DNA of 23,760 nt, taken from Verrucomicrobiales bacterium. Lineage in GTDB: Bacteria > Verrucomicrobiota > Verrucomicrobiia > Verrucomicrobiales > SLCJ01. Positions 3-6,474 of the stretch are shown piece by piece (the stretch's first letter is position 1; the number at the start of each line of letters is the position of its first letter). The DNA lies in the NCBI GenBank assembly GCA_046075565.1, contig JBJTQJ010000034.1, positions 1 through 23,760 of the forward strand. Direction: 5' to 3'. The notes beneath the pieces were generated by a model. It searched no databases, had not been told where the DNA came from, and worked only from the letters and a program-made list of their open reading frames with translations. The translations under genes were made by a program, and so were the position numbers.

Positions 3-743
3 TCATCGGCGACGCCGGAAAGCAGCGAGACCACCAAGGAGAAGCAGCGCGGCCGAGCCCGGTTCGGGCACGACGAACCGGTAGGTCGCCGGAGCGCTCA
101 TGACATCATTACCGCCTTGTTTGGCGAAGGCCTCAAATTCAAGTTCGTAAACACCGAGGTCGGTGAAAGCGAAGTTGAAGTGCGTATGAGTCAACACATA
201 AGCGACATCCGTGGCATCGATGCCGTCGGATGTGGCCATCCAAACGATCGGGTTGCCCAAGCCGTCATCCTTCCAGAGGGAGAATCGCGGGTTGATGGCG
301 TGTCCGCTGTAAGTGAAATCGAGCAGACGCAGGCCGAACCATTTGTTGCTGGTGTTGGCTCCGCGGGCGTCTCCGGGGTTCCACGCGTCGAAGGCACCCA
401 GATCGGCTTCCTCCGCCCCAATACCGAGATACGGCAGGTTTGGTTCGGGAGCGTCGGGGATTTGGTAGTAGGTCTGACCCGCGCCGACATCGAGGAAATT
501 CCACTGGGCACCTGGCGGTCGGGTCGTGGTGGCGAACGCCGGGTTGACGAAGGCCTCCGCTTCTTCGGGTTCGTATTCGAGTACAGTGGTTTCGTCGTGC
601 CAATGCAGTCCCAGGTCGCCGGCTTCGGCAAGGCCGATATCAACATGTTCGGTGGTAAAGGTCGTGACGGCCATGAGTTTGCCTATGGCGAGGTTTCCCG
701 CGACGAGCGCGGCCAGCAGTGGTTTGGTATGTATGGTTTTCAT
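3..743 (-). CDS. PEP-CTERM surface protein with a choice-of-anchor M / TIGR03769-like His-motif domain (246 aa)
   Basis: Start taken at ATG 743 (MKTIHTKPLLAALVAG.. signal peptide). Motifs EHVDIGL, HWHDE, LPYLGIGAEE and THTHFNFAFTDLGVYELEF. C-terminus VPEPGSAALLLLGGLAAFRRRR is a canonical PEP-CTERM signal. The stop TGA (5-3) overlaps ATGs at 6-4 and 3-1, suggesting a coupled downstream gene outside the window. Confidence 0.85.
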   Translation of the reverse strand: MKTIHTKPLLAALVAGNLAIGKLMAVTTFTTEHVDIGLAEAGDLGLHWHDETTVLEYEPEEAEAFVNPAFATTTRPPGAQWNFLDVGAGQTYYQIPDAPEPNLPYLGIGAEEADLGAFDAWNPGDARGANTSNKWFGLRLLDFTYSGHAINPRFSLWKDDGLGNPIVWMATSDGIDATDVAYVLTHTHFNFAFTDLGVYELEFEAFAKQGGNDVMSAPATYRFVVPEPGSAALLLLGGLAAFRRRR

Positions 744-783: not shown

Positions 784-2046
784 TCAAGGTTGCCCGGTGG
801 GGCGAGCTTCGGGGGGCATGGCGAAGTTGATACCGCGGTCGAACCATTGTGCCTTGAGATCGGCTGCTTTGATGGTTTCCACTCGCCCGTCGGCATAAAG
901 GTAGTTGGCCGATCCCTCCAGATGCTGGGGCGTTGCTTCGCCGGTGCGGTGGCGATCCGGCGAGATGTCGGCCAACACGCTCGACCAGGATTTCCAGTTG
1001 CGGCTGTGGGTGTGATCGTTGGTGAAACTCAAGCCCACCCGATCGGCGACCGTAAAGAGCAGGGGAGTTTGCGATGGATATTGCAGTCGTGGCAGATGCC
1101 GGAAGGATTCAATCATGCCGCCGAGCCCATCGTCGAGGTCCACACTCGTGTATTCATTGAGCGTGTAACTCGTTCCTCCTTCCGCGAGCCGATCCTCCCG
1201 TTTTGGGTCCGCTGGACAGATGCGAATCCGATCATAGCCGTCGCCGAGATAGTCTTTGAGTTGGAAAATCCAACTCTCCCCGGGATCCAGATGGGACGTG
1301 GTGGGGAGCCAGCCCGAGTTCTCATTGGCATAGGCGATGAACGCGGTGCCAAGCGTGCGCATGTTCGACGCGCAGGCCGCCCGATTGGCCATCATTTTCG
1401 CACGGGCGAAGGCCGTCCATATCCCCGCTGCCAGCACCGCGATGATCGTGATGGCCACCAACAGTTCCACCAGAGTGAACCCGTTGCTTTTCCAGGGCCT
1501 CGATGCCCTGCGGAACCATTCCTTTGTTGACTCGGGTTTTGCCCAGGTCGGCCCAAGCGGGAGGCTCTTGAGTTTCTTCCAACAGAAGTCCCGCCAGGAT
1601 TCTCCGGCCAAGGTTTGCACGGATTCCTCATGCACCAGTGCCCACTGCAAAAGCGGCCGGGCCAGATCTGACCATTCTCCGGCAGGCACCGGGAGGAGCG
1701 GATTGGATTCCGCGTTCGCCGGGTCCCATGAGCTGACTTCCCCCAACCGCCGGCTACCCCGCTTGAAGACAAAGGACCGCCCCTCGGTTTCCCACCGAAG
1801 GTAGGTTCCATGTAGTTCCACCACGCTGCCGCCGGGCAGCTCGCGGCGGTATCTCGAACTCGTGCCCTCCCGAGGCCGGGGCAATCGTGTGAAGCCCGTG
1901 CGCAGGAACAAATTCCCGTCCGGATGCCGGGCATCCAATCCCCAAAAAACCATCTGCTGAGCCAGAACTCCCCGTAAATCCGTTTCCCGGACGCGCACCT
2001 GACCAGCACTTTTCAGTGAGAGAGGGCGTTGCGCAGTGAGGACCAT
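784..2046 (-). CDS. Fusion of an unknown N-terminal domain (189 aa) with a prepilin-type N-methylation / H-X9-DG-like C-terminal protein (420 aa)
   Basis: Internal RRASRPWKSNG|FTLVELLVAITIIAVLAAG class III signal (F codon 1479-1477), CASNMRTLG..Y.NEN.GWLP and C-terminal GSANYLYADGRV. Start at ATG 2046 chosen because the track's 2064 start lies inside the promoter. Confidence 0.8.
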   Translation of the reverse strand: MVLTAQRPLSLKSAGQVRVRETDLRGVLAQQMVFWGLDARHPDGNLFLRTGFTRLPRPREGTSSRYRRELPGGSVVELHGTYLRWETEGRSFVFKRGSRRLGEVSSWDPANAESNPLLPVPAGEWSDLARPLLQWALVHEESVQTLAGESWRDFCWKKLKSLPLGPTWAKPESTKEWFRRASRPWKSNGFTLVELLVAITIIAVLAAGIWTAFARAKMMANRAACASNMRTLGTAFIAYANENSGWLPTTSHLDPGESWIFQLKDYLGDGYDRIRICPADPKREDRLAEGGTSYTLNEYTSVDLDDGLGGMIESFRHLPRLQYPSQTPLLFTVADRVGLSFTNDHTHSRNWKSWSSVLADISPDRHRTGEATPQHLEGSANYLYADGRVETIKAADLKAQWFDRGINFAMPPEARPTGQP

Positions 2047-2066
2047 AATGCAAATTATATGCAATA
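2046..2066. promoter_or_regulatory. Imperfect 10-1-10 palindrome TAATGCAAAT-T-ATATGCAATA, Fur/Zur-family-like operator
   Basis: 8 of 10 arm positions are complementary. It is an AT-rich island in GC-rich DNA and covers the -10 box and the first base of the start codon of the 784-2046 gene. Regulator identity is inferred. Confidence 0.6.
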
Positions 2067-2081
2067 ACGGAGAAATTGCAA
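2054..2081 (-). promoter_or_regulatory. sigma70-like promoter TTGCAA-16-TATAAT (probably leaderless)
   Basis: Minus strand -35 at 2081-2076 and a perfect -10 at 2059-2054, 7 nt upstream of ATG 2046. Confidence 0.65.
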
Positions 2082-2160
2082 ATTGATCTGTGATTTTGCG
2101 GTTTTTTGCCGATTCCGTGGTTGTCGGCGACCCAGATTCATCCCGGCGGACGACACAAGA

Positions 2161-2196: not shown

Positions 2197-3675
2197 ATGA
2201 CCCGGCTGAATTTCTTCTTAGCGCTCGCCGCCCAACTGCCAATGGCTCCGGTTTGTTCCGCACAAGAGGCGGCGAAGCGACCACCGAACATCCTGTTCCT
2301 TATGGCCGATGACCTCAACACCCGGTTGGGATGTTACGGTGATGAGATGGTGAAAAGCCCCCGCCTCGACTCGCTGGCGTCCCGGGGAGCCCGGTTTGAT
2401 CGCGCTTACTGCCAATTCCCGCTCTGCGGACCGAGCCGCAACTCAATGCTCACCGGACGATATCCGGACAGCACGGGGATCCACGCCAACTCGCAAATCT
2501 TCCGCCAGACCATCCCCGAAGCCGTCAGTTTGCCGCAGGCCTACCGTCGCGACGGGTGGTTCGCGGCTCGCATCGGCAAGATGTATCATTACAATGTTCC
2601 CAAATCCGTCGGAACCGTGGGACACGACGACCCCGCATCCTGGGAGCTGACGATTCAGCCCGCCGGTGTTGATCGCGTCGATGAAGAAGGCGACATCTTC
2701 TCTCTGCGCGAGGGAGAATTCGGCGGCACGTTGAGCTGGTATGCTTCACCCCGCGGGAGTGAATTTCATACCGATGCCATCATGGCCAAGGATGCGGCAT
2801 GGGTTCTCGAGAGATGCGCCAGAGAGCCGCAACGACCGTTCTTTTTGGCCGTCGGATTTTTTCGCCCGCACACCCCGTATGTTTCGCCGAAATCTTACTT
2901 CGAGCACTATCCATTGGAGAAGATTTCACTCGTGCAAGGTGTAGACAAAGATCAGCAAGACATTCCACCCCTCGCGCTCGCCAGTCGCAAACCCGAACAG
3001 GAAAAACTCACCGACGATCTCCGGCGTCAAGCCATCCAGGCGTATTTCGCCAGCATCACTTTCATGGATGAGCAGGTCGGTCTCGTGCTTGACTCCCTGA
3101 AACGTCTAGGTCTTGAGGAAAATACCATTGTCGTATTCACCAGCGATCACGGATACCATCTCGGTGAACACGGTCTTTGGCAGAAGCAAAGTCTCTTCGA
3201 GGAGAGTGCGCGGGTTCCTCTTCTCATGGCAGGCCCCGGCGTGAAACCCGGCACCAGCATCGGAGCTCCCGTCGGATTGATCGACATTTATCCCACGCTC
3301 CGGAAAATGACCGGCCATGGCTCATCCGAACCATTGCAAGGCCAGAACCTCGTTCCCATGCTTGAGGACCCAACGACCACTGGTCGCGGCTACGCCCTCA
3401 CGCAGGTCAAACGGGGCAACATTTCCGGATGGTCCATCCGGACAACCCGCTGGCGATATATCGAATGGGACAATGGCACCAAGGGAGCCGAACTCTACGA
3501 TCACGACAACGATGCCGGCGAACTCACTAATCTCGCTGCCGATCCCGCCCATGCCGCCACCTTGGCCGAACTCACCACCCGTCTGCGCGAATCCGCCGCC
3601 ACCACCCGTCCGGCGTCCGGCCGAATCCCCGAAGTCATCCCCGAAACCTGGCCACCCAATCTGTTGGGTAGGTGA
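2197..3675 (+). CDS. Secreted Cys-type formylglycine sulfatase (S1 family, iduronate-2-sulfatase-like)
   Basis: Signal peptide; PNILFLMADDL; CGPSRNSMLTGR (CxPxR signature); GKMYH; RPHTPY; FTSDHGYHLGEHGLWQK; ELYD. Confidence 0.93.
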   Translation: MTRLNFFLALAAQLPMAPVCSAQEAAKRPPNILFLMADDLNTRLGCYGDEMVKSPRLDSLASRGARFDRAYCQFPLCGPSRNSMLTGRYPDSTGIHANSQIFRQTIPEAVSLPQAYRRDGWFAARIGKMYHYNVPKSVGTVGHDDPASWELTIQPAGVDRVDEEGDIFSLREGEFGGTLSWYASPRGSEFHTDAIMAKDAAWVLERCAREPQRPFFLAVGFFRPHTPYVSPKSYFEHYPLEKISLVQGVDKDQQDIPPLALASRKPEQEKLTDDLRRQAIQAYFASITFMDEQVGLVLDSLKRLGLEENTIVVFTSDHGYHLGEHGLWQKQSLFEESARVPLLMAGPGVKPGTSIGAPVGLIDIYPTLRKMTGHGSSEPLQGQNLVPMLEDPTTTGRGYALTQVKRGNISGWSIRTTRWRYIEWDNGTKGAELYDHDNDAGELTNLAADPAHAATLAELTTRLRESAATTRPASGRIPEVIPETWPPNLLGR

Positions 3676-3987: not shown

Positions 3988-4665
3988 TCAAGGCGCCGGG
4001 GAGATGCGGACGTTCCGGAACCAGACGGTCGAATCACCGTGTTTGCCTTGCAAGCCGATGTGGCCTTTGGAGGGAAGAGTGGCGGCGGGCTTCGAGAGCC
4101 AGCCTGGGATGTCCGAGCCATCGGGGTTTTTCTTCACTTCGGTCCATTTATCCATGTCCATGTCGGCGGTGAGTTCGCCGTTGAGCCAGACTTTGATGTT
4201 GCGGCCTTTGGCGAGGACGATCATACGGTTCCATTCGCCGGGGCGTTTGGTCATTTGTTTGGCGGGGGCAAGGCGGCCGAATACACCACCGCCGTGCCAT
4301 GTGGGCGCTGACTTCGCCCATTTTTCGGCGAAGGGGTCGGCAATCTGGAGTTCGATGGAATTTGGGATCCAGTTTTTCGTGTCGGTGCAATGGACGATGA
4401 CGCCGCTGTTGGTTCCGTCGGCGGTTTTAAATTCCAGATCGAGGAGGTAGTTCTCGTGTTCGCCGGCGAGCCAGAGCACTTGGTCGGCATTGGCGGTCAG
4501 TTCACCATTTTCAAACTTCCAGACGCCGTCCGGAGCTTTGACGTTCGAAAGATCGGGGGCGATCATTTCCTTGCCTGGCTCGGCGGGTGTGGGCGGGGCT
4601 TCGGCGAAAACGCTTGCAGAAGCGGCGAAAGCGAGGGCGATGATCGGAAGGACGGTGCGTTTCAT
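3988..4665 (-). CDS. DUF1080 (3-keto-disaccharide hydrolase family) secreted protein
   Basis: Signal peptide; WKFENGEL; LDLEFK..GTNSGV; ELQIAD; PGEWNRMIVLAKG.IKVWLNG; GHIGLQGKHG..VWFRNVRI. Confidence 0.92.
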   Translation of the reverse strand: MKRTVLPIIALAFAASASVFAEAPPTPAEPGKEMIAPDLSNVKAPDGVWKFENGELTANADQVLWLAGEHENYLLDLEFKTADGTNSGVIVHCTDTKNWIPNSIELQIADPFAEKWAKSAPTWHGGGVFGRLAPAKQMTKRPGEWNRMIVLAKGRNIKVWLNGELTADMDMDKWTEVKKNPDGSDIPGWLSKPAATLPSKGHIGLQGKHGDSTVWFRNVRISPAP

Positions 4666-4978: not shown

Positions 4979-4988
4979 AGTCACGTGA
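4926..4988 (+). pseudogene. Truncated nucleotidyltransferase (DUF6036/MNT-like), N-terminal stub only
   Basis: MNSDFKNLLRIFAEEGVE matches the usual M(N)xDFK(D/E)LL..(N)..xVEYLxVGG start. The frame runs into the stop of the convergent gene at 4981, just before the expected YLxVGG motif. Confidence 0.6.
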
Positions 4989-6474
4989 TGACCGGCAGCT
5001 TGAATTCCTCGCGGTAAGTGCCGGCCACGAGGGCATTGGCTTCGTCGGCGAATTCACCGGTGAAGACCTCCTTGTCGGGGTCGAAGGAAAGCAAGACACC
5101 GCAACGGATGGGGGATTTCGCGGGGTCGAGGCCGTTAGCGACGAGGTGTTCGAGGAAGGCTTCGTTGAGTTCAAGCGCGCGTTTGTCGCCTTGCAGGCGT
5201 TCGCGGATCTCATCCGGATTGGCGGATTTGCCGAGGCGGTAGGAGATGTTGGCCAGATGGGCGAGGGAAGCGGAGAGATGGCCATCGAGCACACCGTGAT
5301 CGGGACGGGTGAGTTTGCCGGCGCCGATCGCCTTGATCCAGTTTTCCATGTGCCCTTCTCCATCGGTGACGGCGAATTTCTTGATCGTCTTGCCGTTGGC
5401 ATCAAGGGCGCGGGATTCGGCGATGAGGCCGCCTTCACATTCAATGATGTTGGCGATACTCACGCCGTGCATGCGGGGTTCACCGATGGCCCAGTCCATG
5501 TTCTTGCGGGGCAGGCCGCGGTTGTCAAAGAGCAGGGGAGCGGGTTTGTAATCGAAAAGGGCGAACTGGGTATTGGGGGTCTCGCCATCATCCTCGTATC
5601 CGAAACGTCCACCGACACTCATGACGGCGGAGGGGAGTTTCATCTGGTCCAGCGCCCAGCGGGCGACGTCGAGTTGGTGTGGACCTTGGTTGCCGATGTC
5701 GCCGTTGCCGTAGTCCCACTGCCAATGCCAATCATAGTGGAATTGTTTGCGATGCAGCGGTTTCGTCTCCCTTGGCCCGCACCAGAGATTGTAGTCCACT
5801 GATGCCGGTGGTTGCACGGGACCGTTGGTTTTGCCGATGCTCTTGCGTGGTTTGAAATTGAGGCCGAGCGAGGTCTTGATTTTTCCGAGGTTTCCGGCTT
5901 TGACCCAGTCCATGATTTCATGCCATCCGGTGTCGGAGCGGCGTTGCATGCCGTGCTGGACGATGAGGTTGGGGCGTTTGGCGGCGGCTTCCGCGAGCAG
6001 GCGTCCTTCGCGGATATTGTGGGAAACCGGCTTTTCGACATAAACATGTTTGCCCGCCGCGATGGCGGTCATGGCCAGAAGGGTGTGGGTGTGGTTGGGC
6101 GTGGAAATGATGACGGCGTCCACGTTTGCAGACGCACAGCATTCGCGGAAGTCCCGGATGGCCTGGGGTTTGGCTTTTCCGGCATCCGTGCACATCTTCT
6201 GGTGCTTTTCCATCGCCGTGGTATCCGGGTCGCAAACAGCCGCGATGTTCACGTTCGGCTGTCCCAACATTTTTTTGATGGCGTGGGTGCCCTTGGAGCC
6301 GCAGCCGATGATGCCGACCCGCAGCGCCCCATTCGAACCGGTGGCCTGGGCCCGGACGGGAAAGGCCGGACCGAGCAAGGAGGCTCCAAGTGCGGCGCTT
6401 GCGGAGAAGACAAAGCGGCGGCGGTTGGTGTTTACGGTCGGGTTGGTTCGGGCGGTGAGAATCCTGTCAGTCAT
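4981..6474 (-). CDS. Tat-exported Gfo/Idh/MocA family oxidoreductase
   Basis: NRRRFV twin-arginine signal; RVGIIGCGSKG Rossmann motif; STPNHTH; GKHVYVEKP; GNGDIGNQGPHQLD. Confidence 0.93.
   Translation of the reverse strand: MTDRILTARTNPTVNTNRRRFVFSASAALGASLLGPAFPVRAQATGSNGALRVGIIGCGSKGTHAIKKMLGQPNVNIAAVCDPDTTAMEKHQKMCTDAGKAKPQAIRDFRECCASANVDAVIISTPNHTHTLLAMTAIAAGKHVYVEKPVSHNIREGRLLAEAAAKRPNLIVQHGMQRRSDTGWHEIMDWVKAGNLGKIKTSLGLNFKPRKSIGKTNGPVQPPASVDYNLWCGPRETKPLHRKQFHYDWHWQWDYGNGDIGNQGPHQLDVARWALDQMKLPSAVMSVGGRFGYEDDGETPNTQFALFDYKPAPLLFDNRGLPRKNMDWAIGEPRMHGVSIANIIECEGGLIAESRALDANGKTIKKFAVTDGEGHMENWIKAIGAGKLTRPDHGVLDGHLSASLAHLANISYRLGKSANPDEIRERLQGDKRALELNEAFLEHLVANGLDPAKSPIRCGVLLSFDPDKEVFTGEFADEANALVAGTYREEFKLPVIT

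Follow-up and report, generated by a model that had tools for sequence, protein, structure and literature searches.

The open reading frame (ORF) at positions 784-2046 on the minus strand of contig JBJTQJ010000034.1, from an uncultured freshwater Verrucomicrobiales bacterium (assembly GCA_046075565.1), joins in one chain a predicted folded domain, belonging to an unnamed family of stand-alone proteins, to the processing signal and head of a type IV pilin-like protein. The window analysed here is a 23,760-nucleotide (nt) stretch of this contig, positions 1 to 23,760. Comparison of the ORF with its relatives indicates that it is a genuine, evolutionarily conserved gene fusion and not an error, and that the fusion is old rather than an accident of one genome. 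Our preferred reading, which we hold to be a little better than an even proposition, is that of a self-resolving fusion, whose precursor would be cut after G189 to give a free cytoplasmic domain and a mature pseudopilin in a 1:1 ratio. The ORF runs over 420 codons from ATG 2046 to the stop codon at 786-784 and consists of the following parts:

784-2046, minus strand: the whole fused ORF (predicted cytoplasmic domain, linker, class III signal and pilin-like head; 420 amino acids (aa) plus stop)
1504-2046, minus strand: N-terminal domain, residues 1-181, with its conserved core at residues 20-177; from the unnamed family of stand-alone proteins, whose C-terminal basic tail is absent here
1480-1503, minus strand: basic linker forming the proximal part of the leader, residues 182-189, the last being G189; predicted coil
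1408-1479, minus strand: hydrophobic alpha1-N segment, residues F190-A213 (E194 being +5), belonging to the class III signal and predicted to anchor the protein in the membrane; matched by Pfam N_methyl and TIGR02532
787-1407, minus strand: predicted periplasmic pilin-like head, residues 214-420, with an NDHTH motif; related to DUF1559 / H-X9-DG pseudopilin-like proteins

The sole prepilin-type signal of the ORF is internal, at G189|F190 with E194. G189 is encoded by nt 1482-1480 and F190 by nt 1479-1477, exactly where a preliminary description of this DNA, made from the letters alone, had placed the start of the signal (residue 190), and the basic patch RRASRPWKSNG that it had reported is indeed found ahead of it. 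Residues 186-209 matched both Pfam PF07963 N_methyl (34.8 bits; cut-off: 21.2) and NCBIfam TIGR02532 (28.5 bits; cut-off: 16.3). The protein has Gly at -1, Glu at +5 and the ~20 hydrophobic residues (F190-A213) expected of a pilin; the feature it lacks is the short N-terminal hydrophilic leader, since the leader counted from ATG 2046 comprises 189 aa. In the full-length AlphaFold2 model, with a mean predicted local distance difference test (pLDDT) of 86, the domain (21-181) is followed by a coil (182-191), a helix of 51 residues (192-242) and a mixed alpha/beta head. A long alpha1 helix with a globular head is the lollipop architecture of pilins, present here as a prediction. The model is that of a prepilin to which a domain is attached through a basic linker, short and flexible, and the C-terminal two thirds of the protein agree in sequence and predicted fold with a type IV pilin-like protein. 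We also scanned all six frames of the genome of the window for class III motifs. Among the 18 motifs found, 16 of the 17 outside the fused ORF have a start codon 2-22 codons before the Gly, and the remaining one, which has no in-frame start, is probably spurious. The fused ORF is the sole outlier in leader length.

The N-terminal part was searched separately, as the preliminary description had proposed. An exhaustive phmmer search with residues 1-189 against 1.84 billion representatives gave 106 clusters at E<=1e-3 and 21 at E<=1e-10 (own cluster included in both), with query residues ~20-180 covered. In 105 of the 106 clusters the representatives are proteins of 49-317 aa that are matched close to their C-termini, and only the cluster of the window has 420 aa. 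Therefore, the family is one of free-standing proteins of ~190-230 aa. Across 41 aligned members, the window protein retains the invariant columns G36, D38, G51, Y66 and P171 as well as the near-invariant (>=90%) residues Q31, S64, R96, W135, E140, R152 and W177. Judged by eye, H41, H79, E140 and C155 are conserved. The similarity to the family stops at ~W177-P184; the basic C-terminal tail of the family (P..PR.R plus 10-40 residues) is absent, and the linker and the pilin stand in its place. The domain is sparse: of 401 genomes sampled from the phylum it is present in 4, and of 40 related genomes 6 gave tblastn-type matches. Among the domain-bearing genomes of the 401 searched, none other than that of the window has it fused, and the genome of the window carries a single copy.

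The AlphaFold2 model of the N-terminal domain, built from the 41-member alignment, has a pLDDT of 91 and a predicted template modelling score of 0.85, in agreement with the earlier suggestion that this part is folded. The predicted fold consists of a long helix, a six-stranded beta-meander (residues 53-104) and three more helices. Residues 1-189 matched nothing in Pfam and NCBIfam better than E 0.07, and Foldseek returned no match to the model in the PDB at E<=0.001. The best hit in VIA-align had a Z of 7.0 (6pwb, a flagellar coiling protein; 122 residues, root-mean-square deviation 3.8), which lies in the range common without a true match, and the next ones (Z 6.1 and 6.0) were unrelated proteins not above background. 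In the ESM Atlas there were only clusters of ~200-aa proteins named 'hypothetical protein', with scores of 0.80-0.81, below the meaningful level, and among the 120 relatives listed for the domain protein of locus L027 there was no name except 'hypothetical protein' and no precomputed Pfam domain. One of these relatives comes from a metagenome-assembled genome of Luteolibacter. We conclude that the N-terminal part is, by prediction, confidently a folded domain without an identified solved relative.

To check the junction in the DNA, public contigs from four freshwater-metagenome runs of one study were aligned to positions 700-2400. The X1 contig (6555 nt, depth 20, from a run that is possibly the source sample) covers the entire region with one difference. 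The X2 contig, from a second sample (210 nt, depth 5.8), covers 1439-1648 without any difference and bridges the junction; the X3 and X4 contigs do not bridge it. No insertions or deletions were listed in the contig alignments over 700-2400, so the indel or lost stop that the preliminary description had considered at this place is not seen in the contigs of two samples. Between-sample variants in the N-terminal part were found at 1714, 1918 and 2017, and all three are synonymous third-position changes (N111, D43, S10). Two short X4 contigs match 1430-1479 alone (90-95%) and then diverge into unlike sequence; these are evidently paralogous pilin genes.

Since representatives at 50% identity collapse relatives, we searched 90% clusters for proteins of 231-735 aa matching residues 1-189. 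All four matches are fused and carry PF07963: the window protein, P0108 (419 aa), P0109 (405 aa) and P0110 (421 aa), together nine member sequences on five contigs. The preliminary description had reckoned with the case that all relatives have two separate genes; P0108, P0109 and P0110 speak to the contrary. The layout and the linker length are identical in the four proteins. Their pairwise identities are 65-80% in the domain core (20-177), 18-45% in the linker (178-188), 80-92% in G189 plus the transmembrane helix (189-213) and 80-88% in the head (214-420), and G189, T191, L192 and E194 are invariant in all four. The core is far better conserved than the linker, a contrast which shows that purifying selection acts on the domain in its fused form and that it is not a mere open spacer.

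The two halves of the ORF occur as separate genes elsewhere. Scanning the 17 domain loci outside the window for a class III motif showed a pilin gene in five of them (G008, G026, L022, L024 and L027). In G008, domain, FeoB-like, pilin and choice-of-anchor-M genes follow one another on a single strand; G026 has the same cluster with the pilin/choice-of-anchor-M pair inverted, and in L022 the order is pilin, choice-of-anchor-M, domain. In L024 and L027 the pilin gene comes immediately after the domain gene with an ATGA stop/start overlap. In relatives, the halves of the window ORF are thus neighbouring genes with translational coupling. A deletion of the FeoB-like gene (~1.9 kb) from a G008-type order had been considered as the origin of the fusion and was rejected as the necessary route once the ATGA-coupled genes of L024 and L027 were found. 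In a maximum-likelihood tree of 37 rows (4 fused N-terminal parts, 15 sequences taken from loci, and 18 of the 105 representatives; midpoint root only), the sister group of the fused clade is not resolved, so that more than one ancestral arrangement is possible. The alternative offered in the preliminary description, a recent fusion of two neighbouring genes, was right about the origin, as shown by the 105 of 106 stand-alone clusters and the ATGA pairs of L024 and L027, and wrong about the age, given the three further fused proteins.

A second search, for proteins of 407-2000 aa matching the pilin part (a range above P0109 with its 405 aa), gave six matches, namely three of the four fused proteins and P0111, P0112 and P0113. 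P0112 (458 aa, one contig) has domain and pilin in one ORF and belongs to the L027 clade, with 74% and 66% identity to the two genes of L027. In it the domain tail is complete, and the Met with which the pilin itself would start is still found 12 residues ahead of the Gly. P0112 is either an independent early-stage fusion or a frameshift error, and its sequence suggests how short the path from an ATGA overlap to a fusion is. As for the other two proteins, in P0111 (502 aa) a single ORF combines a choice-of-anchor-M PEP-CTERM protein with a pilin, in the opposite gene order and with the pilin Met kept, which may reflect a lost stop or a sequencing error. P0113 (572 aa), a DUF1559-like protein of the prepilin type, has a 268-residue extension before G|FTLVE with two hydrophobic segments and a proline-rich stretch, and so offers a further oversized 'leader' of a different kind.

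These data bear on the possibility that the ORF is an artefact of assembly or sequencing, or a decaying relic kept open for its start codon. The C-terminal tail of the domain is missing, the Pyr_redox_3 and FeoB-like companions of the domain gene in other loci were not found in the genome of the window, and P0112, being known from one contig, may itself be a frameshift error. Against this, the contigs of two samples (depths 20 and 5.8) have the same junction, the fusion is common to three other clusters on four further contigs, the core is conserved much better than the linker, the invariant family residues are kept and all three population variants are synonymous. We therefore give an artefact or relic next to no credence.

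The in-frame starts nearest to G189 are TTG L146 (43 codons before it), GTG V143 (46 codons), GTG138 and ATG M32 (157 codons), and codons 147-189 include no in-frame ATG, GTG, TTG, CTG or ATH. The absence of a close in-frame ATG or GTG noted in the preliminary description thus extends to starts of any kind, the nearest being 43 codons away. The AAGGA-ATG that it had mentioned as lying nearby and out of frame is real (ATG at nt 1519-1517). It is formed by the codons K175-E176-W177, and AAGGA directly abuts the ATG with no spacer. W177 is nearly invariant in the domain family, and the AAGGA-ATG is a by-product of the coding sequence and no start. At the other end of the ORF, an in-frame TTG six codons 5' of ATG 2046 (at 2064) is also open, and in the alignment the three closest relatives begin at the position of ATG 2046 or later.

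The pilin part could in principle be made from an internal start at GTG V143 or TTG L146, with a leader of 43-46 residues and with the long ORF as incidental read-through. A GAGGAA stands before GTG143, at a spacing of 4 nt, and the Met retained in P0112 12 residues before the Gly suggests that some single-ORF forms could use internal initiation. In the window, however, the 43 codons before G189 are devoid of common and rare start codons, a leader of 43-46 residues would still exceed all those quoted in the excerpted text of a review (PMC4471445), V143 is part of a helix that is conserved in the domain, which explains its conservation without a role as a start, and no internal promoter-like site was found in 600-2400. 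Moreover, the downstream gene has no Shine-Dalgarno sequence, so this signal is a weak guide in this organism. We regard an internal start as very improbable.

One promoter-like site was detected in 600-2400 (2 overlapping hits; shuffles mean 0.6):

2054-2082, minus strand: sigma-70-like promoter TTTGCA-17-TATAAT, matching 10 of 12 consensus positions; consensus match only

The end of its -10 box is 7 nt from ATG 2046, so the mRNA of the fused gene would, as far as a consensus match goes, be leaderless or nearly so. A near-palindrome, TGCATATAATTTGCA, lies over the -10 box (2049-2063), and a direct repeat of AATTTGCA spans the promoter (2049-2084); these elements may form an operator. Neither the palindrome-like TGCA-N7-TGCA nor the direct repeat occurs a second time in the 3.9 megabases of the genome. 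The idea of a shared operator as the sign of a regulon was dropped, as the TGCA-N7-TGCA pattern is unique in the genome and hence gives no evidence of a regulon.

In other loci the domain gene nearly always stands next to genes of metal homeostasis. Genes for CobW/COG0523 GTPases are found near it in L014, L018, L028, L029, L035 and L036, and in L028/L029 the start of the CobW gene overlaps the end of the domain gene. ZnuA-type binding proteins with ATP-binding cassette (ABC) ATPases are encoded in L028/L029, with a partial one in L015. Further neighbours are a FeoB-like GTPase-permease (L014, by Pfam; L015, by eye), a Pyr_redox_3 flavoprotein (L008 and L014, by Pfam; L015 and L017 similar by eye only), MerC and ArsR (L018), TonB-dependent receptors (L022, L023) and PhoX (L025/L026). 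Choice-of-anchor-M / TIGR03769 proteins, often with PEP-CTERM, are encoded near the domain in L014, L015, L022, L023, L024, L027, L036 and the window. The stop codon of the domain gene often overlaps the start of the next gene. CobW/COG0523 together with ZnuA is a mark of zinc-limitation (Zur) regulons. We infer that these are islands for limitation by a metal, probably zinc, and by its gene context the unnamed family looks like a component of such islands in Verrucomicrobia-type bacteria that has so far gone undescribed. The domain genes of L027 (575-1150) and L028 (2871-3443) are nearly identical (tree branches of 0.034 and 0.017); in L027 the gene is followed by a pilin gene, and in L028 by CobW-WD40-ZnuA. 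This difference may reflect two copies in one organism or a recent reshuffling downstream.

The pilin-like head has orthologues of 240-260 aa with 37-46% identity in G002, G008, G026 and G005. Those of G002, G008 and G026 have ordinary short leaders; in G005 there is a 37%-identical match whose ORF was not read. The G008 orthologue passes PF07596 (32.8 bits), and the window protein falls short of the curated cut-offs of both related families, with 12.6-15.1 bits for PF07596 (cut-off: 23.3) and 12.8-13.3 bits for TIGR04294 (cut-off: 19). Since both cut-offs were missed, we did not file it in DUF1559 / H-X9-DG; by its sequence, the pilin part is better described as a diverged relative of these proteins than as a member.

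The gene downstream in the same operon reads:

3-743, minus strand: choice-of-anchor M / TIGR03769 protein with a PEP-CTERM anchor

It scores 80 bits with NF038134 (cut-off: 55) and 42.1 bits with TIGR03769 (cut-off: 30.9). With its listed start, ATG 896, it would share 113 nt with the pilin ORF. ATG 743 is located 41 nt past the pilin stop and opens the signal-peptide-like MKTIHTKPLLAAL..., so the gene probably starts at ATG 743 rather than at ATG 896; no Shine-Dalgarno sequence precedes ATG 743. The pairing of a pilin gene with a following choice-of-anchor-M gene recurs in G008, G026, G002, L022 and L027. Positions 1-~135 of the window are identical to the end of contig C77 (G000:C77:15807-15941), therefore the two contigs abut, and on C77 the operon goes on to a second choice-of-anchor-M gene, a paralogue on the minus strand (L038 7874-8734) with 40% identity to that of the window. 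H-x-H motifs are seen in the pilin head (NDHTHS, 1000-1030) and in its choice-of-anchor-M partner (HTHFNF, within 3-743), and also in the orthologues (NDHTHS/NDHVHG and HSHMNW/HTHMNW). By eye, they are candidate metal-binding sites. On the other side of the fused gene the genes appear by eye not to be metal-related (no family search was run): a sulfatase-like protein at 2197-3675 (plus strand), divergent from the fused gene, a small secreted protein at 3988-4665 (minus strand) and a Gfo/Idh/MocA-like oxidoreductase with a twin-arginine translocation (Tat)-type signal at 4981-6474 (minus strand).

What becomes of the fused protein depends on whether its signal is processed. According to the excerpted text of two reviews, prepilins insert via SRP (the signal recognition particle) and Sec while the leader remains in the cytoplasm, and they are cleaved at the cytoplasmic face after the Gly, which is the critical residue; the leaders quoted there have 6-26 aa, or ~30 at most in type IVb, and one of 18 aa is called 'very long' (PMC4471445, PMC10191384). 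One of these reviews links the residues G-1 and E+5 with cleavage and with methylation or assembly (PMC4471445). The genome of the window encodes a Peptidase_A24 protein on contig G000:C119 (31.3 and 30.3 bits; cut-off: 26.5) with a Cys-rich N-terminal region. In this gene (G000:C119:90544-91197, L032) the two stretches matching Peptidase_A24 are separated by ~104 unmatched residues, a sizeable insertion within the domain of the peptidase. The release of a ~21 kDa domain by prepilin peptidase, as the preliminary description had proposed, is plausible, being compatible with G-1 and E+5, the flexible linker and the A24 gene. The polyprotein idea gains in motivation from the conservation of the fusion and of the residues needed for cleavage, whereas a signal coupled to pilin maturation, the other idea of that description, received no direct support.

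We propose the following course of events. The upstream partner would have been a stand-alone cytoplasmic protein of the unnamed family, encoded in islands for metal (probably zinc) limitation in bacteria of the Planctomycetes-Verrucomicrobia-Chlamydiae (PVC) type, and would have shed its stop codon along with the basic tail at its C-terminus. The downstream pseudopilin-like gene would have lost its own start and become joined to it via an 11-residue basic linker. The precursor would be translated as a single chain, and its internal hydrophobic helix would insert N-in/C-out via SRP/Sec like that of any prepilin. Because this helix would serve as an N-in signal anchor, the topology would permit a larger leader. 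The A24 prepilin peptidase of the same genome would then cut past G189 on the cytoplasmic face, so that each translation event would produce one domain of ~21 kDa, free in the cytoplasm, together with one mature pseudopilin, the latter working in the envelope with the downstream choice-of-anchor-M PEP-CTERM proteins. In this proposal the fusion is tolerated, and 1:1 co-production fixed, because cleavage of the leader restores the two proteins made by the relatives with coupled genes.

Several observations weigh against a self-resolving fusion. No precedent is known for cleavage with a folded leader of 189 residues, and a folded domain near the membrane could block the access of the peptidase. 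The residue at +1 of P0108 is Y and not F, and P0108-P0110 are known as proteins alone, so that internal starts are possible there. The fused domains form a clade (support 100/100) with a stem of 2.82 changes per column, compared to a median end branch of 0.72, and the pace of the domain relative to the head is faster in the fused clade than in the unfused L024/L027 (71% and 73% identical); the function of the domain may accordingly have changed or relaxed after the fusion. No orthologues of the Pyr_redox_3 and FeoB-like partners were found in the genome of the window, where there are weak partial matches only. Finally, the pilin part scores below the cut-offs of its nearest families, as described above, and nothing shows that DUF1559-type proteins form filaments.

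Some of these points fit better with a conserved fusion that stays uncleaved. Such a protein would be a bitopic membrane protein whose cytoplasmic domain is tethered by alpha1-N to the periplasmic head; a cytoplasmic metal-homeostasis factor would then be physically coupled to a periplasmic binding module, and the protein would stay out of filaments altogether. The leader has 7 times the length of the longest one quoted in the excerpted reviews (PMC4471445, PMC10191384) and is a compact folded domain in the AlphaFold2 model, DUF1559-type proteins are not known to form filaments, the long stem leading to the fused domains is in keeping with a role that changed once they were fused, and the 268-residue extension of P0113 suggests that the family tolerates permanent N-terminal additions. 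On the other hand, G-1 and E+5 are invariant in all four fused proteins despite the drifting linker next to them, the linker is predicted to be a coil and the genome encodes an A24 peptidase. We consider an uncleaved protein, which is the chief competing reading, unlikely, though by no means far-fetched, and prefer the self-resolving fusion.

A more specific form of the self-resolving fusion is that prepilin peptidase acts as a polyprotein processor, with pseudopilin insertion obligatorily coupled to the release of one copy of a cytoplasmic metal-limitation factor. We hold this to be rather improbable. If it is true, the cell would report the assembly, in the envelope, of an apparatus for scavenging zinc (pseudopilin and choice-of-anchor-M surface proteins) to a cytoplasmic response, or match the one to the other, this would be the first natural prepilin with a functional protein as its 'leader', and the substrates of A24 peptidases would extend to folded leaders of ~21 kDa. 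A literature search, with most papers in subscription journals outside its coverage, found no description of a domain-sized prepilin leader.

The biology of type IV pilins assumes a short, disposable leader, and a conserved folded protein of 180 residues in its place is of interest in three respects. The fused ORF would put to the test the bulk that A24 peptidases and SRP/Sec can accept before the cleavage site. It also provides a Rosetta-stone link between an uncharacterised cytoplasmic family and a pair of pseudopilin and choice-of-anchor-M surface protein, and by its gene context this link is a pointer to a module for the acquisition of metal, as yet undescribed, in Verrucomicrobia-type bacteria. 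For annotation, the ORF is a warning that motif searches limited to the N-terminus will miss such proteins or take them for mis-called starts.

Compared with known systems, the window protein shares with type IV pilins and pseudopilins, including the long-leader type IVb and Flp proteins, G-1, E+5, an alpha1-N of ~20 residues, a long helix with a head and an A24 peptidase encoded in the genome. The difference lies in the leader, which in known prepilins is a hydrophilic peptide of 6-26 aa, with ~30 as the upper limit in type IVb, as stated in the excerpted review (PMC4471445), whereas the 189 aa of the window protein hold a folded, independently conserved protein. The conjugative pilin TraA, with a leader of ~50 residues, belongs to a different system. 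With the DUF1559 (PF07596) / H-X9-DG-CTERM (TIGR04294) proteins of Planctomycetota and Verrucomicrobiota the window protein has in common the N_methyl signal followed by a region of the 'ACxSNLRxxG' type and the C-terminal 'SNYLxxDG' motif, but the fused clade does not keep the H of H-X9-DG (R in P0108), and ordinary members of this group have short leaders. Modular pilins such as PilB of Streptococcus sanguinis likewise combine a pilin module and a second module in one polypeptide. In PilB, according to the excerpted report, the extra module is C-terminal and extracytoplasmic and travels with the filament (PMC8179133), whereas that of the window protein stands N-terminal of the cleavage site, would be cytoplasmic and hence could not join a filament. 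The fused ORF also resembles Rosetta-stone fusions of coupled operon neighbours, with separate genes in L024 and L027 and one ORF here, and P0112, as a second and apparently independent fused form, follows the same pattern. Unlike in usual gene fusions, however, the downstream partner begins with a processing site, so that this fusion may be undone post-translationally.

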